Origin: Candidatus Ozemobacter sibiricus
GTDB lineage: Bacteria; Muiribacteriota; Ozemobacteria; Ozemobacterales; Ozemobacteraceae
Assembly (NCBI GenBank): GCA_003327425.1
Contig: QOQW01000013.1
Coordinates: 61,351 to 125,350 of the forward strand
Direction of reading: 5' to 3'
Length of the DNA: 64,000 nucleotides
Below the pieces are notes generated by a model. The model had not been told where the DNA came from. It did not search any database and was given only the letters and a program-made list of their open reading frames with translations. The position numbers and the translations under genes are program-made. Shown one piece after another: positions 2,535 through 57,606 of this stretch (its first letter is position 1; every line of letters starts with the position of its first letter).

Positions 2535-2622
2535 GTCACCGCCCAGCTGGTGCGAGGACCCGCCGTTCACGGGCATCAATTTCCGCAGGCTTGCTCTCAC
2601 CGCCCAGCTGGCGCGAGGACCC
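2535..2622. repeat. two copies of a 26-nt direct repeat (1 mismatch) 62 nt apart in an intergenic region
   Basis: TCACCGCCCAGCTGGTGCGAGGACCC (2535-2560) and TCACCGCCCAGCTGGCGCGAGGACCC (2597-2622) lie between the VOC gene and ORF 2800..3498. Confidence 0.5.
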
Positions 2623-2799
2623 TCCCCCTCCTCCTCCTCCGACCCCGGCGCGCGATCGGCTCAGGGCGCCGGGGCGCGACCGGCCTCGGCCAGCCCCTGC
2701 AGGTAGGCCAGGCGACGTTGGTGGTAGGGCCCCCCGTCGGGGCCGAACGGCACATACTCGCTGACCGCTGCCGCCCCGCCGCAGGGGCCCCACGATGTC

Positions 2800-3498
2800 A
2801 TGGCGGTCATCCGCGAGATCTTCGATCGGGTCCGGTTCTTCCTGACGATCGGTACCATCGCGCTCTACCTCAAGAAAGGCAATCGCACCCTCACCGCCGA
2901 TCGCGTCTGCTTTCGCGCCATCCAGCACGGCTTGCTGTCGGTCAACACCTTGCAGCTGCTGCAGGCCCTGGCCCCCGCCTTCCCCGAGCCGGCCGGCACC
3001 GGCGACCTCTTCCCCCTGGTGCTGTCGCGCTTCTGCCGCCTCGACGAAGACGAGGTCGTCTTCGAGCCGTTCCTCTCCCTGCAGGAAGGATGCGCCCTGC
3101 TCGACGACCACCCCGAGGAAGTGGGCAACTTCCTGCCCGCCGCCAGCGACAGCCTGGCCCTGCTGTTGCGGAACCTCGCGCCCGCTCTCGGCCCCAACCG
3201 CCTGCTGGTCAAACGCATGCTCCCCGAAGGGACCAAGGTCTTCGACTTCTTCGCCCCTGTGGCCACCGCCATCGATCCCAAGGCGGTGCCGGCCATTCCC
3301 CTACCGGCCAATTTCGGCGTGCTCGTCAGCCAGGACTCGCTCAACAACATCGTCCTCGGCCCCTTCCTGCGCTACGACGAGACGAAGGCCGCCATGGTGT
3401 TCGGCCTGGTCGAGGAGCAACCGCTGTTCGACTTCCTCAAAAAGTACGAGGCGCACGAGGCGTATCTGTCCTACCTCTCGGAAGCCGGCAACGACTGA
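2800..3498 (+). CDS. hypothetical protein
   Basis: This 232-aa ORF has balanced, non-repetitive composition. The overlapping ORF 2550..3587 is Arg/Pro-rich and looks like an artefact. It is convergent with the 3' end of the giant gene and has no clear RBS. Confidence 0.4.
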   Translation: MAVIREIFDRVRFFLTIGTIALYLKKGNRTLTADRVCFRAIQHGLLSVNTLQLLQALAPAFPEPAGTGDLFPLVLSRFCRLDEDEVVFEPFLSLQEGCALLDDHPEEVGNFLPAASDSLALLLRNLAPALGPNRLLVKRMLPEGTKVFDFFAPVATAIDPKAVPAIPLPANFGVLVSQDSLNNIVLGPFLRYDETKAAMVFGLVEEQPLFDFLKKYEAHEAYLSYLSEAGND

Positions 3499-31748: not shown

Positions 31749-31897
31749 CGAAGGACCCTTTGTGAAATCAGACTGCGCCAAACATCATCACGAAGCCCTG
31801 AATGCCATCCCAGCGATGGCCTCGGTACTATCGCGCTTATTTTCGCCCGAAAAGCGCCTCAATGCAATAGCGGGTCCCAGCCGACCGGGCCCCCCCT

Positions 31898-31969
31898 GAA
31901 GACCCCATAAAAACAACTGGGGGAGCGACAGCCTGTCCGAAGCCCCCACCAGGGGCCAGCGGCCCCTGG
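31898..31969 (-). terminator. putative rho-independent terminator downstream of the Fe-S protein gene / upstream of the giant operon
   Basis: There is a perfect 9-bp inverted repeat CCAGGGGCC-AGC-GGCCCCTGG (31949-31969). On the minus strand a second GC-rich imperfect hairpin (GACAG-G-CTGTC core) and an AGTTGTTTTTAT tract follow. The geometry is not canonical. Confidence 0.4.
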
Positions 31970-32059
31970 ACCCCTTCTCACCGCCAGCCGAACGCGATGC
32001 GTCCGGCTGGAGAAGCGGCCGCTTCGCGGGCTAGAGCAGCCGTTCAGGCGATCAGCCGA

Positions 32060-32875
32060 TCACCAGTCTTCGGCGACTTCGGCCAGGCCCCGTCGGTCGC
32101 GCAGGGCGATGGCATCCTTGGGGCAGACGGCCCGGCAGACGCCGCATCCGACGCATTGTTGCGGGGCGATCACCGCTTGGCCGGCCTCGCGGTCGAAGGC
32201 GAGCGCATCGTAGAAACAGCGACGCAGGCAGGCCCGGCACCCGATACAGCGCTCGGGATCGACCATCGCCACGTATTCGGCCTTCCACATCACCTTGACC
32301 GCCTGCTCCTTGAACTGGGTGCGCCAGGCCATGCAGTCGCGGTCGCAATTGCAGATGGCCCCGATGTACGGCGTGCCGAAGGTCCAGATGCTGTGAACGC
32401 ACCCTGCCTGGTCGAGGTGCCGCACCAGAGTCGTCGCCTCGACCGGCGAAATGCGATCGAAATCCCGGAAGTCGGGCGCCTCACGCAGCACGTGGGTCAG
32501 ATCCATGCCGATGCCGAGGCAATACCGCAGCTCCTTGCCGGTGGTCACCCGACGGCAGATGCAGGGCAGGCGCACGACCATGGTGAACCGCTCCAGGATG
32601 CGCTCGACATCTTCGAGCGGCACGATCTGCCCGAAATGGGCGCTCTTGAAATACCGGGTGGCCAGCGGCCAGGCCAGGAAGCGGTAGATCTTCGGATACC
32701 GACGCCGCCAGGCCATGGCCCGTGGCAGACTCTCGCGCAGCACACCCGGAAACTCCTGCAGGAAGGCCTTCAGTTTCTCTTCCGAAGAGACCTGCCGAAA
32801 GACTTCTTCCGTGTAGTTCCGGGCGTTCTCGTACCACTTGCCGCCCTCGCCATGCTTTGTACAAAACTCACACAT
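32060..32875 (-). CDS. Cys-rich iron-sulfur protein with two 4Fe-4S ferredoxin-type motifs
   Basis: The C-terminal CIGCRACLRRC...CVGCGVCRAVCP matches two CxxCxxCxxxC(P) clusters. There are additional Cys clusters (CEFC, PCIC, CNCDRDC). It is co-directional with and immediately upstream of the giant operon. Confidence 0.6.
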   Translation of the reverse strand: MCEFCTKHGEGGKWYENARNYTEEVFRQVSSEEKLKAFLQEFPGVLRESLPRAMAWRRRYPKIYRFLAWPLATRYFKSAHFGQIVPLEDVERILERFTMVVRLPCICRRVTTGKELRYCLGIGMDLTHVLREAPDFRDFDRISPVEATTLVRHLDQAGCVHSIWTFGTPYIGAICNCDRDCMAWRTQFKEQAVKVMWKAEYVAMVDPERCIGCRACLRRCFYDALAFDREAGQAVIAPQQCVGCGVCRAVCPKDAIALRDRRGLAEVAEDW

Positions 32876-33068
32876 GTGTCACTGCCTGGCTCGTGTCGTT
32901 GCAGGCATCCTACCGGAAAACGAGGTATTCGGCAAATGGGGCCGCACACCCCGGCTTGTTCTCGGTCAGGCGCGACGCGGCCAACGCCGCCGACCGGCGG
33001 GCGGGAAAAGGCACCACGGGTTCGAGCGCGCTCTGACCGGGCAGCGAAGATCCCTGATGCTCGATCGC

Positions 33069-34472
33069 TCAGAAGGCGCTCCCGACCTGGGCGTTGATGA
33101 ACGCCATCGTCTCGGGAATCTTGCCCTGGGTCAGGCCATGGATCCGTTCGAGGTTGGGATAGGCGCGCAGCCAGCGGTCCGGTGTCTCCAACAGGTGGGT
33201 TTCATATTCCACCAATCGGGTGAGGGAGGGATTGCGCCCCACCGCGCTGTCTTTGATCCGGCGCAAGAACGCGCGGAACTCATCCTTCCCTTGCGGGCGG
33301 GTCGGGAGAACCGCTCCGATCCGGTAGAGGTCAATGAGTTTCAAAATCGTCTGCAGCTGGACCTTCCCGCCTTTGTAGCGAGCCAGATCTCTCTGGAGCA
33401 GGCTGTAATAGTAATACCGCGCCTGGATGAGCGAACCGACGAAGTATTCGTAGATGATGCGGAACATGCCAAAATCCTGGAGAATCGCACCACCCAACTG
33501 CGCCATGCTCTGCGGATTGGCCGCCAACCGACCTTGCTGTCGCAGCACGTCGAACTGCGGCACGAGATACGCCACCACCTGAAAGCAGGTCTTGGCCAGA
33601 TCGTACCAGGCCTTGGCCACTTCCAATCGCTTCTCGTACTGGCGGGCCAGATCGATCGACGGGACCCGGCTCAACTCCGTGCGCAACTGACGGATCTTCT
33701 CTTCCTGGGTACGGAAATAGTCGGATGACACGAAACCGCGAAGCACCAGCGCAATGCGGCCCAACGCCCGCAGGGTTTCCACATTTTCGCCCAGGTCGGC
33801 GGCGATCTGGGCCAAGCTGGCGCCAGCCCGCCCCAGAGCGGCAGGAATCTGCGCATCGATGGCCGCTTCATCGACCGTATAGGCCAGATTGATTTTCCTG
33901 GGAGCGGCCGGCGAGAACAACAACAGCGAGGTCTGGGCTTCGCCCTGGCCGGTCTGAGCCGGCCACTGGAAGGTCAACCCGCAGTTGACCAGATTGCGCA
34001 GCTCGGAATCGCCCGAAGCCGCCAGCCGTTCGCCAGCCAACCGGAAGCGGAAGCGACGGATGGATTCATACAAGGGTTTCATCGATGGATCGAGCGTGCC
34101 ATCGACATTCGGATCGATCACCCCCCAGGGGGGGCGGCGATCTTCGACCATGGAGAAGAAGACCGACCGTCCATCGGTGACATCCTGCCACCCGCCGGAG
34201 GAAGAGGTGTCGACTCCCAGGGTTTCTATGCCGTAGGGGTTGATCATCAGCTCTTCGATCAGATCTTCGGATACCTTCTGGGATAGGATGACCGCCTGAA
34301 GGTGTTCCGAGGTGAAGGTCACCTCTTTGCGGCCAGAGCGGATGAACGTCAGCAAGGTCGTCCCGATCAACGCGCAGAGCCCCACCGCCACCAGGATCTC
34401 GACCAGGGTGACCGCCCGGCCGCGACCAGGAATTCGTTTGGCCCTGGAATTACCAGTCGGGATTCCCATCAT
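33069..34472 (-). CDS. pseudopilin/minor-pilin-like protein (467 aa) with N-terminal prepilin-type hydrophobic segment (GspK-like size)
   Basis: The N-terminus MMGIPTGNSRAKRIPGRGRAVTLVEILVAVGLCALIGTTLL resembles the prepilin class-III G-(F)TL(I/V)E motif. Its start overlaps the upstream stop as ATGA (34469-34472). Confidence 0.5.
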   Translation of the reverse strand: MMGIPTGNSRAKRIPGRGRAVTLVEILVAVGLCALIGTTLLTFIRSGRKEVTFTSEHLQAVILSQKVSEDLIEELMINPYGIETLGVDTSSSGGWQDVTDGRSVFFSMVEDRRPPWGVIDPNVDGTLDPSMKPLYESIRRFRFRLAGERLAASGDSELRNLVNCGLTFQWPAQTGQGEAQTSLLLFSPAAPRKINLAYTVDEAAIDAQIPAALGRAGASLAQIAADLGENVETLRALGRIALVLRGFVSSDYFRTQEEKIRQLRTELSRVPSIDLARQYEKRLEVAKAWYDLAKTCFQVVAYLVPQFDVLRQQGRLAANPQSMAQLGGAILQDFGMFRIIYEYFVGSLIQARYYYYSLLQRDLARYKGGKVQLQTILKLIDLYRIGAVLPTRPQGKDEFRAFLRRIKDSAVGRNPSLTRLVEYETHLLETPDRWLRAYPNLERIHGLTQGKIPETMAFINAQVGSAF

Positions 34473-35074
34473 CGGAGTCCTCCCAGGTTCATCAACCCGA
34501 TGTGGCCAAGGAATTGGAACTCGTTCCGATCTTGAACCACGGTCACATTCACCTGCACGGAATTTGGCGACAGACTGGTGAAGGAGAGAGAGCGCACCGA
34601 TTCGAGCAGGACCTTCTCGTTGGACGCATTGTACGCCCCGGAATAATCGGTACGATAGGCCAGCAGGCGATACACCGGAACCTTCAGCCGTTGGGCCAGA
34701 GGATCGTTCGGCTCGAGGTAGAGGATGGTCACCCGATTGGTGATGTCTTTGAAAATCAAGTAGGGAAGGGTTTCCCCCAGCACGGGGCGAACGAGGTCGG
34801 TGCCCTCGCGAATGAGGGCCATGGTCTGGTCGAAGGCGCGACGGGCTTCCAATTGCAACTGGACCTGCTGGCTGAACGTCCGTTGGGAGAGGCTGAGATG
34901 CTGGATCAATCGAACCCCCACCGCCCCCAGGATCATCATGATGGCCAGCCCCACCATGACCTCCACCAGGGTCCAGCCCTGGGAAGGAGGTAGGTTGCAG
35001 CCCAAGGGCCGCCTTTCATGCCCATGCGCCCAAGACCAGAGAAGCGAGCGCTGAGACCACGGCGGCCGCTTCAT
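34469..35074 (-). CDS. prepilin-type N-terminal cleavage/methylation domain protein (type II secretion / type IV pilus pseudopilin-like)
   Basis: The SQG|WTLVEVMVGLAIMMILGAVGV segment fits the prepilin peptidase site (G at -1, E at +5) followed by a hydrophobic helix. The ATGA overlap with the upstream gene is at 35071-35074. Confidence 0.6.
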   Translation of the reverse strand: MKRPPWSQRSLLWSWAHGHERRPLGCNLPPSQGWTLVEVMVGLAIMMILGAVGVRLIQHLSLSQRTFSQQVQLQLEARRAFDQTMALIREGTDLVRPVLGETLPYLIFKDITNRVTILYLEPNDPLAQRLKVPVYRLLAYRTDYSGAYNASNEKVLLESVRSLSFTSLSPNSVQVNVTVVQDRNEFQFLGHIGLMNLGGLR

Positions 35075-36570
35075 GGCGTGGTGCCGGGCGGGGTCGTCAG
35101 GGGCGGCATCTGATTGGCCAGACGCGCCTCTTCTTCGGCTTTGAGCTCTTCATACCTGGCCTGAGCGAGAGAAATGGCCCGTCTCACCAACGGAGGAAGG
35201 GACGCCAGGATCTGCTGGGCGGCAGCCAGAGCAGCCTGGGTGGCCGGCGTCATCGCATAGTCGGCGATCGAGCTCATGATGCCATTCATGGTGTTGATTT
35301 CGGCCAGGAGATCGGTGAGGGCCCGGGTCCAGATGTCGACCACATTTTTGGCCGCATCTGATGTCGACAGCCCAGCCACGATATCCGCGGCATTGCGAAA
35401 GTGGGCGTATTTCCGTTCCAGGCTGTCGACGAGATTCTTGTACCCGCTCACCATGGTGGCGCTGACGGTTTCCTGGATCGATCTGGCGGCCTCCTCGCTG
35501 GGAGCGTTGCGCACCCGCTCGCCAGCCGCTGCCACCACCTCGTTCATCGCCCGATAGGTGGCGACCCGTGCTTGCGCATCCGCTTCCAGAGCGGCACGAA
35601 CCACCGGGTCATCCCAGGAACGGTTGCCGAGTTCCACGGCGTCCATTCCTTCCTGGGCTCTAGCCAAGGATATTCGCGAATTCCGCAGAACCTCGTTCAT
35701 CAGGTCGTCGAGACTGGACGTTGGGTTGCTACTTCCACCCGAGGTCGGGGGCAACCCCGGAAACCCCTCGGCAGGGGGAGTGGAGGACTGGCCGCCGGTT
35801 CCGGTGGTGGGGGGGGCGAACACGGGATTCGGCCCCGGGCCACCGGCGGTCGGCAGCTCCCCGTTCTGTGGCGGGAGGATGACGGGAGGCGAGGCCGCGG
35901 GGTTGGTCGGCCCGGACACGCCATCGGGCGGGATGTTCACCAACCCTGGCGAAAACGACCTTGGCCGACGCGCGTGCATTTTGTCGAGGATGCTGGGAAG
36001 GTCGCTCAACCCGACGAGTTCCCATCCCAGGTCATCGCTGCGCTTCTGGTTGGCCTCCCGCTCCTGCAGGAGGCGATCGACATGCTGCGAAAACCGGCTG
36101 GGGCCGGCCGCCGTGGGAAAATCAACAGGATCGCCCTGGCAGAAGAAATTGATGGAGATGCGATTGGAGATTTCCAGGAGATCGTCCTCGAAGGCCACCC
36201 GCCAGAAAAAAAGGCGGGTCTGCCCGCTGAGATGCGTGCGCACATAGATATCGGCCTGACGCTCCCGCCCAGGCGTGTTTTCGACGAACAGATCGTAGAT
36301 ACCGCCTTGCAGGGGAACATTGTTCTCGCGGTACGGGGCATGCGCGAACGGCCGGTCTGGCCATGGGAGGGAGTAGACACGGGCATGAAGTTTCGCCATG
36401 GCGGAATACGCCATCAGGAACGCCCAATGATTGGTAGTGGTGTGGTAGATCTGCGATTTGGCCCCTTGCTGCAAGGTGGCCACCGAGATGACCACGCCTG
36501 CCAGCATGATGAGCCCTACCAGCACCAGGGGAAGGGCCAGACCCGTGCGCCGCCCAAGGGAGGTACACAT
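35071..36570 (-). CDS. membrane-anchored Pro-rich protein, first gene of the pseudopilin-like tricistron (pilus/secretion accessory candidate)
   Basis: The start is set at ATG 36570 (MCTSLGRRTGLALPLVLVGLIMLAGVVISVATL), which is preceded by a strong AGGAGG RBS at a 7-8 nt spacing. The track start at 36693 lacks an RBS. The protein has an N-terminal TM helix, a central proline-rich region (PPVILPPQNGELPTAGGPGPNPVFAPPTTGTGG) and a helical C-terminus. Confidence 0.5.
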   Translation of the reverse strand: MCTSLGRRTGLALPLVLVGLIMLAGVVISVATLQQGAKSQIYHTTTNHWAFLMAYSAMAKLHARVYSLPWPDRPFAHAPYRENNVPLQGGIYDLFVENTPGRERQADIYVRTHLSGQTRLFFWRVAFEDDLLEISNRISINFFCQGDPVDFPTAAGPSRFSQHVDRLLQEREANQKRSDDLGWELVGLSDLPSILDKMHARRPRSFSPGLVNIPPDGVSGPTNPAASPPVILPPQNGELPTAGGPGPNPVFAPPTTGTGGQSSTPPAEGFPGLPPTSGGSSNPTSSLDDLMNEVLRNSRISLARAQEGMDAVELGNRSWDDPVVRAALEADAQARVATYRAMNEVVAAAGERVRNAPSEEAARSIQETVSATMVSGYKNLVDSLERKYAHFRNAADIVAGLSTSDAAKNVVDIWTRALTDLLAEINTMNGIMSSIADYAMTPATQAALAAAQQILASLPPLVRRAISLAQARYEELKAEEEARLANQMPPLTTPPGTTP

Positions 36571-36910
36571 TATTTTGACCTCCTGCTTAGTAAACCAGGG
36601 GGAAGGTCTGGAAGTATCCTCAGTTAAGACATAGCACGAAAAATCCCTTACTGGGAAGACCGATCGCCAACTTCCTCCAGTCATTCTGAGCATTGAAACC
36701 CCCTTTTGGTGTCAGTTCTTGCCCAGGGTGACAGCTCGCTTCGGGTTTTTGTGACCAGGGCGGGAAAAAGCCCGTCGTCGGGCCGGTTGTACGCGAGGCT
36801 GGTCCGCCCTGGCCATGCCGCCGCAGGGTGCGCGGGGGAGGAACGCCCGCGGCTGGTCGATCGGATGCCCAGCGGCAACCGGGTTCGCAGGCTCCTGGCC
36901 TCCTCGCCCA

Positions 36911-38143
36911 TCAGGGTCGCGCCTGGACCGCCCGCGCCACGGTCTCTTCGTACTGCCGGGCGCACCGACGATTGTGACGGCTCCAGGCTCGCGTGAGCCG
37001 GTGGTCGCGCCAGATCAGATCGGTAATACGGGAGCGCTCGGGACCACCATCTCCGAGGTAGGCGTAATTCATCAGGGCATGGATCGCCAGGCACCGGTAA
37101 TAGATATACGCCGCCGGCTGGGCGGCATACCCGAGCACGCTCGGCACCAGCAATTTGCACATGACATACGGGAAGGTATCGTACTGGCTGACAAAGGCGA
37201 GATTCCAGGAGGTGTACAAGTCGGACCAGGCTCGCGGGCAGGCCGTGCGCAGCAGGATGGCCCGCCGATCGGCCGTCCAGATGCTCGGGCCTTCGCCGGT
37301 CGCCGGATTCTCGCGTGGCGCCCCGGGCGGATATCGGGCCAGAGTCAGGCCGGCGCGGGCATTGCCGGGGTAGCCTTCCACGATCTCCCAGGCCACCGCC
37401 TCCAGGATATTGAGAGGCAGCAGCACCCTCATGAAATCGGGCGGCACGACGCCCCGCCGGTGGCATTCGACGAACCGGGCGTTCAAATGCTCGATCGACA
37501 GCAGTTTGACATGATCGAACAGCCGGAAGTTCTTGCTGCCCCAGATGAACCGCCGCCCCTGCCGCCAGTGGTCCAGGGTAAATGCCAGGAACCGCCAGTC
37601 TTCGGCCATCAGGCGGGTCAGGGCCTCCAACGCCCAGGCGAAGGTCACCACATCGGGCAGCACCCGCGTCCCTTCCGTAGCCAGGCGGGCCGCCAGCACG
37701 GGGAAGCGGAGACTCCAGGCCCTGACCGACCGCGCACCGCCCGCTTGGCAGAACGGAGGTCGATCACCGGCGGCCTCCGCCCCGCCCCCGGGTCCGTCCT
37801 CCCCTGGTGGCGCCCCGCGGGGCGATTCCGATTCCTCATCGACCCTGTCGGCGCCGACCACCTGATCGAGGAACCCTGCCAGATAGGGATTGGCCGCGGC
37901 CAGGCGGGCCACCGCATCGACGAACCGTTCGAGAGCGGCCCGGTCGAGCCCGGGGGGGCGCAGCCGGTCTTCGGCCTTCGTCAGGGCGGCGGTCACCCAT
38001 CGCCCCGCCCCGTCCAGCAGCCGCCATTCCCGATAATGGCGGACCAGCATCGCCTCGATCGCGGCCGGATCGAGCCCGGCCAGGGCGGCTTTGACCGCCG
38101 CCGCCACCCGCCCGACTCCCGCTCCCGCCGCCAGCGCCGTCAT
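36911..38143 (-). CDS. hypothetical protein (410 aa)
   Basis: This is a long ORF with complex composition in its C-terminal 250 aa (FIWGSKNFRLFDHVKLLSIEHLNARFVECHRRG...). The opposite-strand ORF 36815..39511 is Arg/Pro-rich junk. Confidence 0.45.
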   Translation of the reverse strand: MTALAAGAGVGRVAAAVKAALAGLDPAAIEAMLVRHYREWRLLDGAGRWVTAALTKAEDRLRPPGLDRAALERFVDAVARLAAANPYLAGFLDQVVGADRVDEESESPRGAPPGEDGPGGGAEAAGDRPPFCQAGGARSVRAWSLRFPVLAARLATEGTRVLPDVVTFAWALEALTRLMAEDWRFLAFTLDHWRQGRRFIWGSKNFRLFDHVKLLSIEHLNARFVECHRRGVVPPDFMRVLLPLNILEAVAWEIVEGYPGNARAGLTLARYPPGAPRENPATGEGPSIWTADRRAILLRTACPRAWSDLYTSWNLAFVSQYDTFPYVMCKLLVPSVLGYAAQPAAYIYYRCLAIHALMNYAYLGDGGPERSRITDLIWRDHRLTRAWSRHNRRCARQYEETVARAVQARP

Positions 38144-38167: not shown

Positions 38168-39268
38168 CTACCAGTTCCCCCAGGAACCACCACCGCCGGA
38201 GCTGGACCACCCGCCGCCGCCCCGGGAATCCCCCCCGCTGCCCCACGACCCCGAACTGCCGCCGTACCAGCGATGGCGACGGCGGCGAGAGCTGGAGGTC
38301 ATGATGATGAGCAGCACCATCATGACCTTGACGAAAGAATCCACGAGCAGATACCCCCAACCCCCTTCGCCCGTCGTGGCGAGGGAATGCCCCAACGCCC
38401 CGAGAAAGGCCACCACCACGACGAACAGCACGGGCTTGAACCACGGCCGTTCGGTGAGAGGAATCGGCCGTTCGAGTTCGGCCGCGATTTCGCGCGCCCC
38501 GGCCAGCACCGCCACCGCCAGACGCCCGCTGCGCAGATGGTTCCCCACCGCGCGCTCGACCGCCTGCCGCAGCGCTGCCGCCCGCGACGGCTTCCACCCT
38601 TCGCCGAGGGCCAGCACGGCCCGGACATCATCACGACTGACCAGGAACAGCACCCCGTTGCGCGGCTTGGGATGGCCGATGCCCCAGACGAACAGGAAGT
38701 CCTCGGCCAGCTCCTGGGGATGCTTCGCCCCGTGCGCCGCAGCGCTCTTGACGGTCACCGCCGCCACCTCCACCCCCGTGCGGGCCTCGACGCCACGCAA
38801 AATCTGCCGCAACCGGCTCAGGTCCTCGGCCGACAGGATCCCAGCCAGGTCGTTGGCATGCGGGTCATCAGGGAAAGGCAGATTGAAGCGGGCCAGGCGC
38901 AGCCGTTTCCAGACCTCTTTGGCTTCGTAGCGGGCGAGCACCGGCCGCCCCGGCGGCAGGCCCAGCCTGTGGGCCAGCGGCTCCGGCCAGGGCACCCACC
39001 CGACCACCGCCAGCAGAACGCCCAGCAGCCACGGCCCGCACCGCGCCCGCGCCTGGCGCGGTACCCGGGCCACGGGGACGGGGCATCGCTCGATCTCTCC
39101 GGCCTCGGCCACCGGCGGGCCGTCCAGGCCGTCCCGGCCGCCCATGAGCCCCGCCATTGCGGGGCCGTCGGTGCGCTCCGTGACGCCGTCGGAAAAGCCG
39201 CCGACCGTTTCCCGCCGACCGCGACCGGTCCAGGTCGCGGGCCCAGTTCGCTCGCTCTGGCTCATCAT
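38168..39268 (-). CDS. TPM-domain (TLP18.3/Psb32/MOLO-1 phosphatase-like) membrane protein with Gly/Ser/Trp-rich C-terminal tail
   Basis: TPM-like core (DLAGILSAEDLSRLRQILRGVEARTGVEVAAVTVKS...NGVLFLVSRDDVRAVLALGEGW), then a TM helix (VLFVVVVAFLGALG) and a GGSSGSWGSGGDSRGGGGW tail. Its ATG overlaps the upstream stop (TGATG at 39266-39270). Confidence 0.55.
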   Translation of the reverse strand: MMSQSERTGPATWTGRGRRETVGGFSDGVTERTDGPAMAGLMGGRDGLDGPPVAEAGEIERCPVPVARVPRQARARCGPWLLGVLLAVVGWVPWPEPLAHRLGLPPGRPVLARYEAKEVWKRLRLARFNLPFPDDPHANDLAGILSAEDLSRLRQILRGVEARTGVEVAAVTVKSAAAHGAKHPQELAEDFLFVWGIGHPKPRNGVLFLVSRDDVRAVLALGEGWKPSRAAALRQAVERAVGNHLRSGRLAVAVLAGAREIAAELERPIPLTERPWFKPVLFVVVVAFLGALGHSLATTGEGGWGYLLVDSFVKVMMVLLIIMTSSSRRRRHRWYGGSSGSWGSGGDSRGGGGWSSSGGGGSWGNW

Positions 39269-39708
39269 CAGCGTTCTCCGAAACTGATCGTATCGGACAG
39301 CTCGTTGCGATCATCGGCCTGCCGGGGGAACCAGGCGGCAAGCTGCTCGCCGGCAGCACGCACGCCAGCCAGCAGACCATCCTTGAAACGGCCCTCCCGG
39401 AATTCGGCGATCGCTTTGTCCCTGATGCTATCCCAGAAGCCGGGGGGCACCTTGAGGTTGATGCCCTCGTCGGCCAGAATGGCAAAGGCGCGGCTGCCGA
39501 CGGCCAGATAGAACAGCACCCCATTGCGCTGGGCGGTCTCTCCCATGCGCAGGTAGGCGAACACGATCTTGGCCCGTTCGAACGGATCGCCGGGGCAGGT
39601 GTCCTCGATGTGGATGCGGATCTCGCCCGAGGTCTTGCCTTCCGCTTCGCGAATGGCAGCTTCCAGTTCCTGACGCTCGGTTTCCCCGAATATGGACCGT
39701 GGATCCAT
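39268..39708 (-). CDS. TPM-domain protein (146 aa, soluble)
   Basis: The ATG at 39708 begins MDPRSIFGETERQELEAAIREAEGKTSGEIRIHIEDT...NGVLFYLAVGSRAFAILADEGI, the TPM/DUF477-type motif. The longer track ORF 39268..40476 would overlap the epimerase gene and is R/P-rich upstream of this Met. Confidence 0.55.
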   Translation of the reverse strand: MDPRSIFGETERQELEAAIREAEGKTSGEIRIHIEDTCPGDPFERAKIVFAYLRMGETAQRNGVLFYLAVGSRAFAILADEGINLKVPPGFWDSIRDKAIAEFREGRFKDGLLAGVRAAGEQLAAWFPRQADDRNELSDTISFGER

Positions 39709-39847
39709 GCATGAGCCTCCTTGCCGCGAGCAAATCGCTCGCTTCATCGCTCTCAGAGGGGAGCTGGTCGGCAGCGCCCCGCACGATCGGCCGACGACCG
39801 ACCTCGATCTGCTTCGAGGGTACGCCCCCGTCACCGTCGAGTCAAGA

Positions 39848-40906
39848 TCAGCCCGGGGCCGTTCCGGCCTTTTTGACGTCGGCCCGCACCCGCTGGAAAG
39901 AGGGCAGGCGGTCCCATTCTTCTTCGAGCCGGCCCGGACGAAACCCCAGGGCAAACGCCAGACGACTATCAAGGGACACATCGGGCGGCCGGGGCGCCGC
40001 CATCGGCAGATCGGCCTGCCGCACCGGCACGAGGCCGGTGGCCGGCACCCCCAGCCAGGCCGCCAGCCGCCGGCCCAGGTCGAAGCGCGACACCCGTTCG
40101 GGCCCGCCCAGGTGCAGCAGCGCGGGGGCCGACCGCTGGGGAGCCGGCCCGGGGGCGGCGGTCGGTCCTTCGCCGCGGTCGGGGCGGCAACCGCCAGCAG
40201 GCGGCGCCGGCCGCTCGCCAGGCGGCCAGGGCGGGGACCACGGCCGCCCCAGAGCCAGATGCAGCGCCAGGGCCAGCCCTTCCGCGGCCGCCATGGTGCT
40301 GATGGGCGTGCGGAACTCATCGATGAACAGACGGGCCGGCGGGCCACCCGCCAGCGCGGCCAGCACCGCGGCCAGGGTGTGGCGCCCCGCCGGACTGGGA
40401 TCGCCATACATGAGGGGCAGACGACAGACCGTGGCGGCATCACCCAGCACCTCGTGCACGAGGCGTTCGGCCTCATGCTTCAAGGCGGCATACCGGCTGA
40501 CCGGCCGCGGTTCGGCTGCCTCGGCGTAGGGCGGGTGGCGACCGTCGAAGACGAGGTCGGTCGAGGCGAAGACCAGCCGGGCGCCGAACCGCTGGCAGAG
40601 CATGGCCAGGCGGCGCGGCAGCTCGACGTTGAGCGCTCGCGCTTCGACAGGATGCTCTTCGCACCAGTTGGGATCGGCCGCCGCCGCCAGATGGATCAGG
40701 CCCGCCGGCGGCCGGGCGGCGAATTCCCGCTCCAGCCCGACGGCATCGGTCAGATCGAGGGGAAGCGGCTCCACCCCCGGCCAGCCCGGCCAGGAACCGA
40801 GCTGGCGGACCGTGGCCACCACTTCATCCCCAGGGAAGAGTCGCCCCGCCGCCCGCATCACCTGCTGGCCGACGAAGCCCGTTCCTCCCGTCACCCAGAT
40901 CCGCAT
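39848..40906 (-). CDS. NAD(P)-dependent epimerase/dehydratase family protein (RmlD/dTDP-4-dehydrorhamnose-reductase-like SDR)
   Basis: The ATG at 40906 gives MRIWVTGGTGFVGQQV (Rossmann GxxGxxG), followed by an extended-SDR-like body (~352 aa). The track ORF start at 41185 adds an R/G-rich leader with no support. Confidence 0.65.
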   Translation of the reverse strand: MRIWVTGGTGFVGQQVMRAAGRLFPGDEVVATVRQLGSWPGWPGVEPLPLDLTDAVGLEREFAARPPAGLIHLAAAADPNWCEEHPVEARALNVELPRRLAMLCQRFGARLVFASTDLVFDGRHPPYAEAAEPRPVSRYAALKHEAERLVHEVLGDAATVCRLPLMYGDPSPAGRHTLAAVLAALAGGPPARLFIDEFRTPISTMAAAEGLALALHLALGRPWSPPWPPGERPAPPAGGCRPDRGEGPTAAPGPAPQRSAPALLHLGGPERVSRFDLGRRLAAWLGVPATGLVPVRQADLPMAAPRPPDVSLDSRLAFALGFRPGRLEEEWDRLPSFQRVRADVKKAGTAPG

Positions 40907-41300
40907 GCCGACCGCCTTTCCGTTCTCGACGGTAGCACGCCATCCCGCGTCCCGGCAACCGGCCCGATCGATCTCGGAAGTTCTTCTTCCAACGGCCCAG
41001 CCCAGGCAGGGTCCCCCTCCTCCCGCGAGCCGGACTCGCTCGCACCGGGCTCCGCCATGGAGGGCCGCGTCCAGCCGGGCTGGTCGGAGGCGCCTCTCGC
41101 GGGAAGCGCGCGCCATCCACCGTCGCCCGCGAATGCGAGGGAAAGCGACCAGAGATAGGGAGTTCGACGAGCCCACCACCGTCACCTGCTCCAGACCGCT
41201 GAGCGAGAAGGTCTGGCCCGCTGGGTCAGGTTTGCCAAACCCCCTGGAGATGGTCTAGCCTGGAAGTCTGCAGGTTCCTTCCAGGAGAATCGCCCCCAGC

Positions 41301-43781
41301 ATGTCGCGCCCTTCCCTGCCCGCCGCCCCCCTGCCGGAAGCCTCCCCGTCGGGAACCCTGCGGTCGCGGCCATCGACCGCCTTCCGCCCCGGGATCTGGC
41401 TCCTGCAGGCGCTGGCGTTCATCGGCATCCCCCTGCTGCTCGGTCTGGCCGCGCTGGAACTGCTGGCCAGGCAGGCGACCGCCGAGGCCCAGCACGCCGA
41501 GATCCAGCTCCTGCGCGAGATCTTGACCCAGACGGCGGCCCGCGGCCACCTGCCGACCGCGCTCACCGCGCTGTTCGAACGGCTGTCGTCCCTGCCCTGG
41601 ACCCCCGCTCGGTTCGCCCGGCAGGCGAGCGCTCTGCTGCGCCGCCAGCCCGGCGTCTTCGATCTCTTCCTGTTCGACGCTCAGGGCCGGCGGGTGTCCA
41701 TCCCCGGCGTCCCCGACACCCTGGTCTTCGCCTCCCAGAAATTCCTCGAAGCCCTGCGGCGCGAGGACGCCCGCGTGCCCGCCAAGCTCATCCAGGGATT
41801 CGCCGGCAACCCGCGGGTCCCCGCCCGGCTGCGGGCCTCCCCCGGCCTGCTGGTCGACCTGCTCAACGGCGATCGCCGCACCTGGGGCGGCTGGTGGACC
41901 CTGCGCGACCGCCACGGCAAGGTGACAGGCCATCTCATCGTCTTCGCCCATCGGGCTGCCAGTCCCCCCGACCAGACGCTCGAGCAGGCGGTGGCGCGAG
42001 CGGCCAGCCAGGTCGCCAGCCGATTCCATCTCGGGTGGTACGACCCGCTCGACCCGGGCATCCTGCGCCCGCTCGGGGCCAGTTTCCCCGCCGATCTGGT
42101 CAGCACCCTGCCACGGCTCTCGCCGGCCCGGCCGGTGACCGAGGTCGATGGCCGCCCCCTGGCCGTGCACCTGACCGAGACGGGGACGGTGCTGTTCGGC
42201 CTCGCCCGCCACCCTCCTCGGCCGGTCACCGACTGGCGTCGCGGGCAAGGTCTGCTGCTCGTCGGTGGGCTCCTGGCGCTGGTCCTGTCCTGGGCCTGGT
42301 CACCGCTGCGATCGCTGCGCACCCGGCTGATCCTCCAGTTCCTGGTCGGGGGCGGTATTCCCCTGGCGGTCTTCCTCGGCACCGTTCTCGCCGACCGCGA
42401 TCTGCGCGAGCGGCTGCTCGTCGCCCGCCTGCAAGACACCAACCTGGAGATCCTCATCCGCCTCGACCAGGATCTGCCCACCGTCTACACCCCGCTGCTG
42501 CGCCGGTATCGCGCTACCATGGCCGCCCTGCACCGCACCCCCCTGGCCAGCGCCACTGGGCATCTGGAGCGTCTGGCCGACTGGGCCAGCCGCCAGCGCG
42601 GCCTGGCCGTCTCGACCGGCCTGCCGCAGCACCGGGTGACCCGGGTCGGCGGGCGGCTCTATCTGGTCAGCGCCAGCCGCGGCACGTTCCTCGACGGCTA
42701 CGTGCTGTTCGTCGCGCGGCCCTATGCCACGATCCAGGCGGCCGCTCGCGAACTCACCGGACAGGCGGCCCTCCTCGCCGGCCTGATGCTGGTGGTGTCC
42801 GGGCTGGTGGCTGCCGGCACCTCGCGCTTCCTGCTGGGTCCCATCACGAACCTGCAGCGCGGCCTGGAAGCGCTCCGCCAGCGCGATTTCCGGCACTTCG
42901 CCCCGCCGGGGCACCTGGCCGATCTCGCGGTGGTGACCGATCGGTTCAACCAGATCATGGCGCGCCTGGGCGAGCTGCAGGTGGCCCGCTCCATCCAGGA
43001 AGCCCTCTGGCCGCGGGCCGGCCTGGCCGGCCCCGGCTGGCGCGTCGCCGGCGCCTGCCGAACCGCCACCCACCTGGGCGGGGACCATCACGACTGGTTC
43101 CGCTGCCCGGACGGGTCGGTCTTGCTGGCGATCGGCGATGTCGCTGGGCACGGCATCCCCTCCGCCCTGGTGGGCGCCGCGGCCAAAGCGCTGCTGGCCC
43201 TGACCGCCCCCCTCGGCGACCCCGCCGCCATCCTGGCGGCGATGAATCGGGGATTCCTCGATCAGGCCGGACGGGCCAAACCCATGTCATTCTGGGTCGG
43301 CCTGTTCGACCCCACCACCCGCCGCCTGCGCTTCGCCAATGCCGGCCACAATTTCCCGCTGGCCGTCCGGCCCACGGGCGAGCTGGTCACGGCCGGCACG
43401 CCCGGCTACCCGCTGGGCACCCGGCGGCATCCCACCTACACCGCCGGCCTCCTCGATCTGACGACCGGCGGCCGCCTCCACCTGTATTCCGACGGGTTGA
43501 TCGAAGCGCATGACCGCACCGACCAGCCCTACGGCTACGACCGGTTCGCCGACACCGCCAGCGACCTCCTCCCTCCCGGCCTCGACCGCCCCCGCGCCGA
43601 GCCGTTCGCTCACCAGGCCGCCCAGACCGGCGAACCGCTGCGACGGGCGGATGGCTCGCTGGTGGTCGTCTTGACCACGGCGGGCCCCCATGTCCTGCTC
43701 GGGCAGGTGCCGCCGCCCTCTCCCACCTTGCCGGTCGGCGCACTCGCCGCCTGGCTGCTCACCGCCAACCTCGCCCTGGTC
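41301..43781 (+). CDS. membrane sensor - HAMP - PP2C (SpoIIE/RsbU-type) serine phosphatase, module 1; no stop codon before module 2 (in-frame continuation)
   Basis: TM helices (IWLLQALAFIGIPLLLGLAALELL; GLLLVGGLLALVLSWAW) and a HAMP-like linker (LLGPITNLQRGLEALRQRDFRHF...FNQIMARLGELQ). The PP2C signatures are GGDHHDWF...LLAIGDVAGHGIPSAL, ANAGHNFPL and LHLYSDGLIEAHD. The phosphatase domain ends near residue 797 (~43690), but the frame stays open. Confidence 0.6.
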
Positions 43782-45862
43782 ATGCCTGCGCCGGGACGCT
43801 GGCCCCGCCCCGCGCTGGCCGCCTTCCTCATCGCCTCGCTCGGGGTGGCCGCCGGTCTGCCCATCCTCGTCACCGCCCTGTTCTGGATGCGCTTCACCAC
43901 CACCTTGACCGCCACCGCGGAAGCCGAAGAGCTGGCCCGCCTCGGCGAGGCCCTGGTCCAGATCGACAACCGCTTCCCCATCCTGTTGCGGCGGCGGCAA
44001 CGCGAGTTCCGCGCTCTCCTGCGGGAGTTCGAACGCACCCAGGCCCTCGGCCCTCTCCTCGATCGCCTGGCGATCATGGAACTCGGCTGCGAGTTCGACA
44101 ACGGCTTCCTGATCAGTTCGGCGGGCGCCATGCTTCGGCAGTATTCCCGCATGGCGACGCACCATCGCCCCTTCGTGCTGCTGCCGAAAGACCGACGCCG
44201 ACAGGCCCTGCAGGACCAGTTGAATGCCGGCCTCCGACCTCATCCGGCCGAGGTGGAGCTGATGCTCGAGATCGACCTGGCCACCGCCTCGCTGCTCCGC
44301 ACCTGGAATTTCCACCTCAAGGACACGGAGGCCGTCAGCCATTTGATGGGAACCCTGGGCAAAGTGCTGATCACCGGCTACAACCAGGAGGTGCTCGGGC
44401 TCGCGCCTACGGCCCCCGATCAGCCGGAAGATCCCGCTTCCGTGCTCTACGGCGGTCTGTTCGAATCCTCGGCCGCCGACCTGAAATCGCAGCTGCTGGC
44501 CAACCTTGGCACGTTCGTGCGGGCCGGCAGCGGGCCCAGCATCCTCCACCTCTACTTCGACATCTTGCGCGACGCCCTCGGACATGGGGCCTACGCCCTC
44601 TACTCGTCCATCACACGCTCGGGGCCGAGATGGCCTTCCTGCGCGACCTGTTCCGGGAGGCGCCGCTGGTCGACGAGGGGGTCCGGTTCTACGCCCAGAG
44701 CGCCGCCGTCGGGTTCGCCTTCCCCCCCGGCGAGCGGCCTCCCCTGCTGGCGTCGTGGGCCAATCGCCTCGAACCGCCCCGCCGGCTGCGCGGCGAAGTC
44801 GCCACCCTGGACGGCGAGCGGGTGCTGGTCGCCGCGTTCGCCTGTCGCCACCTTCCCAACTACCGACTGTTCGCCGTCCGCCCCTATGCGCCGCTGGCGG
44901 CTCGTCTGCACCAGACGCGGGTTCTGATGGGAAGCGGGTTGTTGCTGGTGTTCCTGCTGGTCGGCACGATCGGCTGGCGGCTGCGCGAAGGGGTGTGGCG
45001 TCCGACCCGCGCCCTCCTGGCCGGAGTCCAGGCCATGGCCACCCGCGCCTTCGATCACCGCATCACGGTCGCCACCGGCGACGAATGGGACGACCTCCCC
45101 GCCGCCTTCAACCAGACCCTGGCGACCATGGAAGAACTCGAGGTGGCCAGCGTCATCCAGGCCAGGTTGTTCCCCGCCGGGCCGGTCACCACCCCGGCCG
45201 GCACCTTCCTGGGCCGCAGCCGCACCACGCAGGAGGTGGGCGGCGACTATTTCGACGCCCTGCCCGGCCCCGACGGCACGCTGTTCTTCCTGATGGGCGA
45301 CGTCACCGGACACGGCGTCTCGGCAGCTCTGGTCGTGGCCATGGCCAAATCGGCCTTCGGCTACCTGGTCCGGACCGGCCCGCCCTCCCCGGCCGCCATT
45401 CTGGACCGGATGAGCGCTCTCTTCCGCGAGCAGCTCGGCCGCACCCTCGCCATGACCTGCCAGATCGGCTGCCTCCACCCTGATGGCACACTGCGCTTCG
45501 CCAACGCCGGGCACCTCTTTCCCTTCCTGCTGCAGCCGGGGCAGCCGATTCGCCGCCTCGAGCAGCCGAGCGTGCCGCTGGGTATGCGCGCTCGCCGCCC
45601 CTACGTCGATCTGGTGATCGACCTGCCGAGCGACGCTCGCCTCCTCTTCTGCACCGACGGCATCATCGAAGCGACCGACCCCGCCGGAAAGATGTTCGGG
45701 TTCACGGGGCTGACCGCTTTGCTCGCCGCGCTGCCGCCGGCGCCCCCTGCCGCGACCATCGAGGCCGTGTTCGCCGCCCTCGCCGCGCACACACGGGAAG
45801 TGCCCTGGGCCGATGACGTCACCGTGGCCATCCTGTGCCGGTCGGCAGGAGAGACGGCCTGA
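43782..45862 (+). CDS. membrane sensor - HAMP - PP2C (SpoIIE/RsbU-type) serine phosphatase, module 2; requires a -1 frame change near 44619-44632 (GGGG run), so either a frameshifted gene/pseudogene, a sequencing error, or part of one tandem-module protein
   Basis: An in-frame ATG at 43782 (MPAPGRWPRPALAAFLIASLGVAAGLPILVTALFW, a TM helix) is followed by a sensor region in frame 0 up to ...ILRDALGHGAYALYSSI. The plausible protein then continues in frame +2 from ~44621 (…LGAEMAFLRDLFREAPLVDEG...LLLVFLLVGTIGWRL TM, HAMP, then GGDYFDALPGPDGTLFFLMGDVTGHGVSAAL, ANAGHLFPFL, LLFCTDGIIEA) to the stop at 45862. Frame 0 beyond 44630 and frame 2 before 44590 are both Arg/Pro/Ser-rich junk. Confidence 0.5.
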
Positions 45863-45981
45863 CCCCGCGCGGCGAAGACCAAACCCTCTGAGCGAGGGCA
45901 TCCGAGCTGGGCCCCGAACCCGTTGAAGGGCGGCCAGATCTGCGGTACACTCCCCACAGCCTCCCGACGAAAGGAACCACC

Positions 45982-46512
45982 ATGCGTCCCTCTTTCCCCT
46001 TCATAACGCTGATCCTGGTGGGGCTGGCGGCCCTGTTCACCTGGCTGGGGGCCGGCCATCCCGCGGCGGCCAATGTGACCCGCTCCGTCTTTCCGGTAAA
46101 CATCGCGCTGTCGGTGACCCCGCTCGGGCCCTGGTCGCCTGACCAGGGCGGCATCCTCAAAGCCCAGATCACTTCCCGGCTCGGCACCTTGCGACATCTT
46201 GAGATCTCCTTCGCCGCCTCGCCCGACCTGACCGTGCATCCGCTGACCAGCCAGGTGGCCGAGCTGGCAGAAGGGGCCAGCGAGAATATCCCCCTGCGGG
46301 TGGCTAGAGGGCCCGGCTTGCCCGACGAGATGGGCTCCTGGGTCCGGATGCGGGTCCAGTATCTGCCCGACTACGAACGGATCGCCCAGGCCGTCCGCGC
46401 CCCGGCCTCCTACCCGAATCCAGCCGAGCGGCAACGCCTGCTCGCGATCGTCGAACGCAACGCCCACCGCGCCGAGCGCTACACCGCCGCCTGCCGCTTC
46501 TTCGCCCGCTGA
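45982..46512 (+). CDS. secreted hypothetical protein (176 aa)
   Basis: Signal-peptide-like N-terminus MRPSFPFITLILVGLAALFTWLGAGHPAAA. An AAAGGAA RBS precedes it. The antisense ORF 45601..46467 is low-complexity. Confidence 0.5.
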   Translation: MRPSFPFITLILVGLAALFTWLGAGHPAAANVTRSVFPVNIALSVTPLGPWSPDQGGILKAQITSRLGTLRHLEISFAASPDLTVHPLTSQVAELAEGASENIPLRVARGPGLPDEMGSWVRMRVQYLPDYERIAQAVRAPASYPNPAERQRLLAIVERNAHRAERYTAACRFFAR

Positions 46513-46726
46513 CTACCGCGCGCACGCCGCAAGTCGCGAGGTTCTTCGTGACGCTCTTCGCTCGCGGCAGCGGCAAGCGCCCGCGCCTCTCCCCCCCGCT
46601 CTACCGATCTTCCTCGCCTGCCCTGATCGGGCGCCCCTCTCTCGCACGTGCGACAGAAGCCCCTCTGAGCAACTTCTCGGCTCCCAGGGCATGGCGCATG
46701 GCCATGGGCGCTCCGCCCGAGATGCC

Positions 46727-52981: not shown

Positions 52982-54424
52982 TCAGGGCGCGTCGGGGGCG
53001 TTCAGGAAATCGAACATCCAGTCTCCAGAGCTCTCCCAGGCCTGGCCTTGAGGGCCGGTCCAGGTGTGGTCGGTGGTGAGCAGTCCGCCCTCGACCTGCC
53101 GGTCGGCCTGGTGGGTCACGGTCTTCCCGCGGTCGGTCGTCCAGGCAGAGTTGACCGAGCCCCCGTCGACCGTGGTCTGGCCGGTGACATGGCGCGTCTG
53201 GCCATCCGGCGTAGTATAGGTCTTGTCGGACGTGAAGGTCGAGCCGTTTTTGACGGTGGTACCGGTCACCGTGGTGGTCCGACCCTGGGGCCCCGTCCAG
53301 GAGCGGTCATAGGCGGCCTGGTTGCCGTCAACGGTGGTCTGGCCCTGGAAAGAGGCGGTCTTCCCGCCTTCGCCCCTCCAGGTCTTGTGCGTGGTCGTGG
53401 TCGAACCCTCACGGGTACGGGTTCCCTGCACCTCGACCGTCTGGCCGCCTGGGCCGGTCCAGGTGCCTTGCTGCTGCCAGGTCTGTCCGCGATGGGTCAC
53501 CGTGCCATCGTAGGTCTGGGTGCGTCCCTGCGGCCCGGTATGGGTGCCCGTGGTCCACCATGTCCCCTCGCGAGCGCCGCCCGGGCCTTGGCTCTGGCCA
53601 CTCACCGCTCCCTGCCATTGGGACGCGCGGCCGGCCGGCCCGACGAGGGCGCCCTGAGCGGCCAGGCCGCGAGGGCCGCCGGCCAACTGGTTCATCCGTT
53701 CGGCCAGCTGGGGGAAATCCCTCTGGAGGGCGCCGAGCTGGTCGGGGCTCATCTGGCTCCAGTGCTGACGCAACTCCTGGAGACGGGCTTGCCACGCCTG
53801 CGGATCGCCGCTGCCGCGAGCGGCCATGAACGCTTTGATCTTCTCCTGCAAAGCCCCCATCTGGGGATTGCCCTGGACTCGTTCCTGCCACTTCTGGCGA
53901 AACTGCTCCCAGCCCTGACCGCCATGGGGATCGCCCCAGCGGGCCCGCATCCGCTCCTGCCAGGCCTGCCAGCGCTCGCCGCCCCCCTGACCGGCTTGCA
54001 TCCGTTCCTTCCACTTCTGCAGGAAGCCCGCGCCCGGCCCGCCCTCCTGGTTCCTCTCCCGCATTCGCTCTGGCCAGCGCTCCCGTAGGCGCTCCACCCC
54101 GGGCGGCAAGCGGTCGGCGCCTTCTCCCCCCGGGCCACCTCCTTGCTGCCGTCGCTCCTTCCACTGCTGGAACCGATCGGCCGTGGCCCCGCCTTCCTCA
54201 CCGGCCTGGCCGCCCGCCCGGCGCTGCTGCCATCGCTCCTTCCAGGCGGCCCCCGCGCCCGCCCCCGTTCCGCCCGCCTCCTGCCCGGCCGGACGATTCT
54301 GCCAGCGGGCCCCGGCGCCCCCGGCACCGCCCTGCCCCTGGCCCCATCTGCCTTGGGCCGCCACCGCGACCGTCATGCCGAATAGCATCACCCCGCAACC
54401 CATTCCCACTAGCCAAGCACGCAT
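52982..54424 (-). CDS. secreted repetitive protein: N-terminal half of ~17-aa W-x-E-R/Q-rich repeats ending in Gly runs, C-terminal half Thr/Gly-rich beta-type repeats
   Basis: An AAGGAG RBS sits 7 nt upstream of ATG 54424. The signal peptide is MRAWLVGMGCGVMLFGMTVAVAAQG. The repeats include AAWKERWQQRRAGGQ, FQQWKERRQQGGG, FLQKWKERMQAGQGGG, RWQAWQERMRARWGDPHGG and WEQFRQKWQERVQGNP, followed by GTWTGPGGQTVEVQGTRTREG...TGPQGRTTTVTGTTV. Confidence 0.55.
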   Translation of the reverse strand: MRAWLVGMGCGVMLFGMTVAVAAQGRWGQGQGGAGGAGARWQNRPAGQEAGGTGAGAGAAWKERWQQRRAGGQAGEEGGATADRFQQWKERRQQGGGPGGEGADRLPPGVERLRERWPERMRERNQEGGPGAGFLQKWKERMQAGQGGGERWQAWQERMRARWGDPHGGQGWEQFRQKWQERVQGNPQMGALQEKIKAFMAARGSGDPQAWQARLQELRQHWSQMSPDQLGALQRDFPQLAERMNQLAGGPRGLAAQGALVGPAGRASQWQGAVSGQSQGPGGAREGTWWTTGTHTGPQGRTQTYDGTVTHRGQTWQQQGTWTGPGGQTVEVQGTRTREGSTTTTHKTWRGEGGKTASFQGQTTVDGNQAAYDRSWTGPQGRTTTVTGTTVKNGSTFTSDKTYTTPDGQTRHVTGQTTVDGGSVNSAWTTDRGKTVTHQADRQVEGGLLTTDHTWTGPQGQAWESSGDWMFDFLNAPDAP

Positions 54425-54478
54425 CGATACTCTCCTTTTTTCCGACGATAGGGCCGCCTGGCAACCCAGGCCAGCGCC

Positions 54479-57157: not shown

Positions 57158-57606
57158 TGTCTATCAGCCTCCGTTTGAATGTCTTGCTCGACATCGAATA
57201 CCCGAGGGAGACGATCTCACCTCGTTCACTTCAGGGGCGTAGCTCAGGCGAGCCCCCAGAAGATCGTCATCGACCTGGCCATGCCGGCCATATGGCGCGG
57301 CCAACGGCTCTGGGAGCGCAAACACGATCGATCTTCGCCACCATTCCAAAATGGATGAAATCGAGGTATCCTGATTCCTGGTGGAGCCTCCATTGGCTCC
57401 GAGGGCCGATCGGCGATTTGATCGTCCCGCGAGAAAGGCATACGGCATGGGCATTCAGATGCTTTTGCAGGCGATCCGTGCGAGAAACCCTGTCGCGATA
57501 TGACTGACCGGTTTCCCTCCCCCAAAGGTACCGCTGACTGGTTGGTCAATCAAGCCCATGCCGAAGGCTTCCGCCCCTACCCCTGATTCGAGGAGGATCC
57601 TGCCCC

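Follow-up and report, generated by a model that had tools for sequence, protein, structure and literature searches.

SpoIIE, a bacterial PP2C-type phosphatase, has ten transmembrane (TM) helices and lacks a HAMP domain. Among the closest known systems to the proteins discussed here is SiaA of Pseudomonas aeruginosa (PA0172), in which two membrane-spanning regions surround an extracytoplasmic part that is followed by a HAMP domain and a C-terminal PP2C-type phosphatase (PMC7647112). Strictly conserved active-site residues of this 663-residue protein are D457, D474, G477, D600, G601 and D653, the last of which is located ten residues from the C-terminus (PMC7647112). Here we describe a phosphatase locus of Candidatus Ozemobacter sibiricus that was examined in a stretch of 64,000 nucleotides (GenBank assembly GCA_003327425.1, contig QOQW01000013.1, positions 61,351 to 125,350), called the window, to which all positions refer. 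Like SiaA, the Riflebacteria proteins related to this locus are membrane-bound and combine an extracytoplasmic part with HAMP and, at the C-terminus, a PP2C domain. An initial annotation, made from the letters of the window alone, described two sensor-HAMP-PP2C modules in one open frame with a frame break in the second, and proposed a natural two-module phosphatase, a recent tandem duplication turning into a pseudogene, or a homopolymer sequencing error. Comparison with intact relatives leads us to regard the locus as probably a recently inactivated, fused remnant (pseudogene) of a conserved, translationally coupled pair of membrane sensor PP2C genes, here called g1 and g2. Rather than a new two-module enzyme, it is most likely a product of ordinary gene decay.

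Reading frames of the locus and intact gene pairs in related genomes

The list of open reading frames (ORFs) contains an uninterrupted ORF of 1208 amino acids at 41301-44927, in agreement with the initial annotation, which was also right that the two phosphatase units are not separated by an in-frame stop and that the ATG at 43782 is in frame. Its product was deposited as 'Serine phosphatase RsbU' (RCK79424.1) and is also a cluster representative. A second open frame begins at 44506 or 44630 and ends at 45862. The GC content around the locus is 0.69-0.73, and the GC content of third codon positions (GC3, 0.83-0.93) marks a single coding frame from ~41300 to ~44600 and then the -1 frame to 45862, which bears out the frame change proposed before 45862. 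Repair of this change gives a two-module fusion of 1520 amino acids. Both modules contain the predicted PP2C domain, with Pfam SpoIIE/PP2C (PF07228) scores of 111.7 bits for module 1 and 142.1 bits for module 2 (gathering cut-off 25). Of the two predicted HAMP domains only the second left a trace, a PF00672 match of 17 bits that lies below the cut-off of 25; its orthologue P0006 attains 26.2 bits in the corresponding region. Module 1 gave no match to the HAMP profile, and its orthologue P0003 reaches 19 bits.

In seven related Riflebacteria loci, a SpoIIE gene of 950-1080 amino acids (g1) is directly followed by a second such gene (g2). These loci (contigs L002+L010, L003/L004, L005-L007 (=L012), L008/L009, L011, L013 and L014) were obtained from the contigs of homologue matches and from a scan of GTDB species genomes. 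The junctions were read directly in L002, L003, L005/L006 and L008, and the layout of L011, L013 and L014 was derived from stop-to-stop frames. At each of the junctions read directly, the stop of g1 and the start of g2 share 4-20 nt (ATGA in L002 and L008). Both genes encode the same layout, i.e. TM1, periplasmic domain A, TM2, TM3, periplasmic domain B, TM4, HAMP and PP2C; domains A and B have no Pfam matches. The g1 orthologues found are P0002 (71% identical in the best local alignment), P0003 and P0004. The g2 orthologue P0006 (60% identical) was found by a search with module 2 alone; a search with the repaired 1520-residue fusion, in which the word prefilter was swamped, returned five matches. 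The constant pairing suggests that the g1 and g2 proteins work together, perhaps as a heterodimer. Paralogous coupled pairs are present as well (L003 10001-15771, L005 10001-15884, L008 6765-13114, and also in L011, L013, L014 and L044), with at least two to three g1/g2 pairs per genome in the metagenome-assembled genomes (MAGs) AS27yjCOA_28 and binchicken_co135_42.

A natural two-module phosphatase finds no counterpart in these data: g1 and g2 are separate in all seven loci, and a fusion is absent from the 150 best family representatives (of 1.84 billion), which do not exceed 1076 amino acids. The initial annotation had suggested looking in orthologues for a stop codon after module 1. This stop is indeed present; the mis-assembly that it was expected to imply does not follow, a genuine deletion being the best reading, as discussed below.

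The proposed tandem duplication has to be divided. The appearance of a pseudogene holds, with the stop between the units lost through a deletion of ~0.9 kb. A recent duplication is rejected: the modules are only 36% identical over 235 amino acids of the HAMP-PP2C part and share no 16-mer. Each module is nearer to its own orthologue (58-71% identity) than to the other module. Judged by these comparisons, the modules are old paralogues and the pair is conserved across Riflebacteria.

Three lesions relative to the intact orthologues

Alignment to the intact orthologues mapped three disabling lesions, which are two large deletions (D1 and D2) and a deletion of one nucleotide (Table 1). D1 lies within g1. 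Residues 2-425 of the g1 protein of L008 align with window residues 15-441 (59% identity), and past D1 window residues 431-756 pick up at L008 g1 residues 714-1039 (71% identity). Module 1 had been considered complete, and the absence of ~288 codons of its second periplasmic domain was overlooked. A Kyte-Doolittle scan placed the TM segments of the g1 remnant at residues 34-52 (TM1), 318-336 (TM2), 344-362 (TM3) and 489-512 (TM4). In L008 the positions corresponding to the ends of D1 are imperfect 18-nt direct repeats, CGACGCCAGCGGCACCTG and CGCCGGCTGCGCGACCTG, which code for RRQRHL and RRLRDL; slippage or illegitimate recombination is classically associated with such repeats.

D2 joins the two genes. 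The Pfam SpoIIE match of PP2C-1 covers residues 603-756 (nt 43107-43568) and profile positions 1-156 of 192, the last ~36 positions being without a match; in the orthologues the match extends over positions 1-190 or 1-191 at 138-139 bits. In a BLASTP comparison, window residues 701-900 follow L008 g1 to residue 1039 (..GYDRFAQAARDL) and then L008 g2 from residue 258 (LPAGLS..), with a gapless alignment of 144 amino acids (g2 258-401) at 51% identity. The peptide spanning the junction is DTASDLLPPGLDR. Missing from g1 are the last 40 codons, which encode the terminal PP2C strand with EDDQTLVLLD and its conserved Asp, together with the stop codon. Missing from g2 are the first ~257 codons, which include the start and encode TM1 as well as most of domain A2. 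The deletion amounts to ~0.9 kb, and its ends show little or no sequence identity in the relatives. Since the equivalent of SiaA D653 (DDxT/EDDQT motif) lies inside D2, PP2C-1 is without a conserved catalytic residue and the terminal strand. This differs from the initial annotation, in which module 1 ended near 43690: the PP2C match stops at 43568 and the residues that follow are derived from g2. The segment RRADGSLVVVLTTAGP, taken earlier as the end of PP2C-1, is the end of g2 domain A. A g1/g2 junction at ~43690 was rejected, as the 40 residues preceding it are 50% identical to g2 258-297 (counted from the BLASTP alignment) and ~27% identical to the g1 C-terminus (an estimate from a gapped alignment).

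The third lesion splits the remainder of g2. It had been placed in the GGGG run near 44620, but a DNA alignment with three orthologues (window, L008, L010 and L003) reveals exactly one gap, of 1 nt, at 44603/44604. The same position was obtained separately with a seven-state Viterbi model on codon-position GC in which stops were forbidden. The site is 18 nt upstream of the GGGG run (44621-24) and is not in a homopolymer of 3 or more bases. Across it the repaired reading is GHGAYALY-LVHHTLGAEMAFLRDLF, with the counterparts GAYGLYGVQHMMGVEMAFLRDLF in L008 and GAYVLFLVQHILGMQLSYLRELS in L003 according to the protein alignment; the predicted trans-frame peptide is GAYALYLVHHTLGAEM. The whole g2 remnant (repaired residues 757-1512) is 58.5% identical to residues 258-1019 of L008 g2. 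Its first TM segments were found by the Kyte-Doolittle scan at residues 810-828 (TM2') and 839-857 (TM3'), with the ATG at 43782 in the short loop between them. PP2C-2 is complete, matching profile positions 1-191 of 192 (E = 2.6e-41) and possessing the terminal motif WADDVTVAIL.

A programmed -1 ribosomal frameshift or transcriptional slippage, which would yield a natural two-module protein of 1520 amino acids, agrees with the direction of the change and with the fact that both frames are open across the site. However, there is no slippery heptamer (X XXY YYZ) or A/T run at CTC TAC TCG TCC, the three orthologues are in a single frame through the site so that no shift is conserved, and the fusion upstream is a derived state that itself arose by deletion. 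We consider such recoding extremely improbable.

Of the three lesions, D1 removed the core of g1 domain B. D2 took away the last strand of PP2C-1 with a conserved catalytic Asp and the stop codon of g1, and from g2 the start codon, TM1 and most of A2, welding the remains in frame; the 1-nt deletion split domain B of g2. The predicted 1208-residue product consists of a truncated phosphatase, g2 helices, half a sensor domain and 108 out-of-frame residues. According to the TM map, TM2' and TM3' now come after a cytoplasmic domain, and a reversed insertion would be needed to bring B2 to the periplasm and PP2C-2 to the cytoplasm. The intact PP2C-2 lacks a start codon with a ribosome-binding site: there is no Shine-Dalgarno sequence at the ATGs at 43782, 44630 and 44927, and AGGAG-like sites precede most other checked starts in the window by 6-14 nt. 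The two-module appearance results from deletions in a GC-rich genome, in which off-frame stops are rare.

Table 1. Features of the probably decayed g1/g2 locus in the window
Feature	Position	Strand	Description
g1 5' part	41301..42605	+	start codon (GGAG ~14 nt upstream), TM1, domain A1, TM2, TM3, first ~70 aa of domain B1
D1 junction	42588..42608	+	..SRQRGL/AVSTGLPQH..; ~288 codons gone in frame from the centre of domain B1
g1 3' part	42606..43568	+	end of B1, TM4, HAMP-like linker, C-terminally truncated PP2C-1
D2 junction	43566..43571, break 43568/43569	+	..FADTASDL/LPPGLDRPRAE..; ~297 codons gone in frame
g2 remnant, first part (in g1 frame)	43569..44603	+	last ~50 aa of A2, TM2', ATG 43782, TM3', first ~245 aa of B2
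Frameshift	44603/44604	+	one base absent between TAC (Y, 44601-03) and TCG (44604-06)
Out-of-frame tail of the 1208-aa ORF	44604..44927	+	108 codons, no homology, TGA 44925-44927; GC3 leaves the frame after ~44600
g2 remnant, second part (-1 frame)	44603..45862	+	rest of B2, TM4', HAMP (weak match), complete PP2C-2, stop 45860-45862
TM4'	~44921-44977	+	
HAMP	44993-45130	+	
PP2C-2	45269-45841	+	

Reality of the lesions and possible function

Several observations weigh against a decayed gene pair, some of them concerning the reality of the lesions and others their effect. With respect to the former, at least one lesion, most plausibly D2, could be an assembly or sequencing artefact, in which case the true genome would carry two ordinary genes. 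The source is a metagenome-assembled genome, and a related low-coverage MAG (L002 and L044) has probable frameshift splits. The JGI and Logan contigs that match the locus stop at 43310 and restart at 43626, leaving 315 nt around D2 uncovered, and D2 is found in two NCBI assemblies only, which may rest on the same reads.

On the other side, D1 and the frameshift recur, with 100% identity, in contigs built by different assemblers. A contig of JGI metagenome 3300038964 (L017) is identical to window positions 43626-46555, including the frameshift; D1 is included in a JGI contig (L042, window 38609-43310) and in a Logan contig (L043, SRR12784215, window 39477-43310). As these contigs are labelled as another dataset, the two lesions are not read errors. 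Their identity, shared by the Logan DRR318519 contig mentioned below, apparently reflects the same strain under several dataset labels. The homopolymer error that the initial annotation had considered is contradicted both by this identical sequence and by the position of the missing base outside the GGGG run. For D2, the exact 1208-residue ORF spanning the junction is present on two NCBI contigs (159,523 and 70,937 bp) from two assemblies; contig L001 (GCA_020725785.1) shares 23.6 kb of identical sequence with the window. Repeats of at least 16 nt, which could have led an assembler to skip 0.9 kb, are absent from the region. A search of metagenome contigs with a 120-residue query around D2 gave no contig of Ozemobacter among the matches listed, which were unrelated PP2C genes with DGLIEAHD-like peptides. 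In the parts of the window modelled as coding, including 26 kb of giant ORFs, there is no other unexplained frame switch; three further direct same-strand switches in the Viterbi path (~1982, 13899 and 38300) are ordinary stop/start boundaries or fall inside a single ORF. In conclusion, D1 and the frameshift are genuine and D2 is very probably so. An artefact is improbable as the explanation of the locus.

Some related observations were made on these contigs. The Logan contig from DRR318519 is 100% identical to window positions 45598-46659. An internal repeat does not account for the ends of the contigs at 43310 and 43626, as the region has only one shared 14-mer. The closest relative MAG, binchicken_co135_42 (~3x contig coverage), has a frame break of its own in the g1 orthologue (L002 ~2560-3100). 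The tblastn frames in L002 change between L008 g1 residues 152 and 158, as a result of which P0002 is called 175 amino acids short. In the same MAG a paralogous g2 is split into genes of 211 and 765 amino acids (L044 3058-5987). Unlike the lesions of the window locus, the frame breaks in L002 and L044 are probably low-coverage errors.

The remaining counterarguments concern the effect of the lesions. Both large deletions are in frame, for which the chance is ~1 in 9, and this might be a sign that a translatable product was selected for. With L003 as the outgroup, relative-rate tests after Tajima gave no significant excess of amino-acid changes on the window lineage (g1, 43 vs 58 sites; g2, 68 vs 60 sites), although these tests have low power with lineages that are 35-40% diverged. 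The codon-position GC bias is undiminished. The lack of a rate excess and the retained GC bias imply that the decay is recent or that the retained parts are still constrained. Finally, the A2-derived tail following PP2C-1, RRADGSLVVVL, resembles the lost EDDQTLVLL at similar spacing.

The in-frame deletions, the lack of a rate excess and the resemblance of the tail, together with the completeness of PP2C-2, would fit a remodelled but functional locus in which in-frame deletions gave working proteins. The candidates would be a g1 derivative in which PP2C is completed by ADGSLVVVL, and a sensor-less, membrane-anchored PP2C-2 of 410 amino acids starting from the ATG at 44630. Against this, the tail has D-G-S where PP2C domains have D-D-x-T, and the Pfam profile stops short of it. 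An AlphaFold2 model of the chimeric PP2C-1 region, based on a 4-sequence alignment, has a mean pLDDT of 49, with values below 50 for residues 179-263, which include the tail; the model is too poor to decide whether the borrowed strand completes the PP2C fold. Judging from the TM map, g2 helices behind a cytoplasmic PP2C domain would need an inverted topology. The internal ATGs have no ribosome-binding sites, and this architecture occurs in 0 of the 150 best family representatives. We therefore regard functional remodelling as unlikely.

A stronger form of this proposal is that the deletions were selected and gave a one-chain protein. Its PP2C-like domain, completed by ADGSLVVVL (in place of DDQTLVLL), would be controlled by the sensor and HAMP of g1 and tethered to the membrane and sensor module of g2, the 1-nt deletion being very recent or strain-level. 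This appears very unlikely; if true, it would exemplify how deletion and fusion of coupled genes can give rise to a new domain architecture. The stretch RRADGSLVVVL itself (window 43641-43670) is located ~26 residues past D2, and EDDQTLVLL ~29 residues past the same point in the orthologues. The resemblance misled both the initial annotation and a MAFFT alignment, and it may be a coincidence or a reason why the deletion was tolerated.

Genomic surroundings and comparison with known systems

Synteny around the gene pair is not kept (window 39848-46512 compared with L008 3700-14611). In L002 and L008 a histidine kinase and a PALP enzyme are encoded upstream, and in L008 pyrB and pyrI are found downstream. 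The window locus has a divergent epimerase gene upstream and a 176-residue gene of unknown function downstream. The different flanks indicate that the locus was also rearranged in the Ozemobacter lineage. Elsewhere in the window, two giant uninterrupted ORFs are present on the reverse strand, at 3530-13891 (3453 amino acids) and 16176-31781 (5201 amino acids), the latter with PPC, fn3, Big_5 and Big_13 matches in the precomputed gene table; both probably encode surface or adhesin-like proteins. The GC content is lower at 30001-38000 (0.62-0.65) and 54001-58000 (0.54-0.58) than in the remainder (~0.70), and these stretches may be acquired DNA or differently constrained genes. The tRNA and Rfam scans gave no tRNA genes or Rfam matches anywhere in the window.

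As a decayed gene pair, the locus resembles other fused or split bacterial pseudogenes formed by deletion in having several independent lesions, a retained codon bias and no rescue signals. It differs from the usual deletion pseudogenes in that both large deletions are in frame, so that the wreck reads as one long ORF and was deposited as a normal protein. Annotation RCK79424.1 should accordingly be used with caution, as it describes a chimera of two decayed genes with an out-of-frame tail. In genomes with a high GC content, neighbouring genes can be joined by deletions into long and convincing ORFs, and comparison with orthologous loci resolves such cases quickly.

The same comparison exposes a Riflebacteria-specific family of paired sensor phosphatases with four TM helices and two periplasmic domains, which may deserve study in its intact form. 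By analogy with SiaA and RsbU, the intact proteins would transmit a periplasmic signal via HAMP to a phosphatase acting on a partner-switching protein; a phosphorylated STAS-type antagonist is the substrate expected from the family. Both window modules pass the gathering threshold of the RsbU/SpoIIE family (PF07228), and the Rv1364c structure (3KE6) was also matched. RsbU and Rv1364c are soluble and carry other N-terminal regulatory domains; PP2C-1 also differs from them in lacking the end of the profile. The SiaA PP2C domain (6K4E) is the best solved match to PP2C-2 (E = 4.7e-13), which has the conserved motifs GGDxxD, GDVxGHG, xDG and DDxT, as in SiaA. The Riflebacteria proteins differ from SiaA in their four TM helices, in two large periplasmic domains that lack Pfam matches and in being encoded as coupled pairs. 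The window copy is disrupted, and the gene list shows no siaBCD-like partner genes beside it. The intact paired family is uncharacterised but of a known kind, that of HAMP-PP2C sensor phosphatases such as SiaA.

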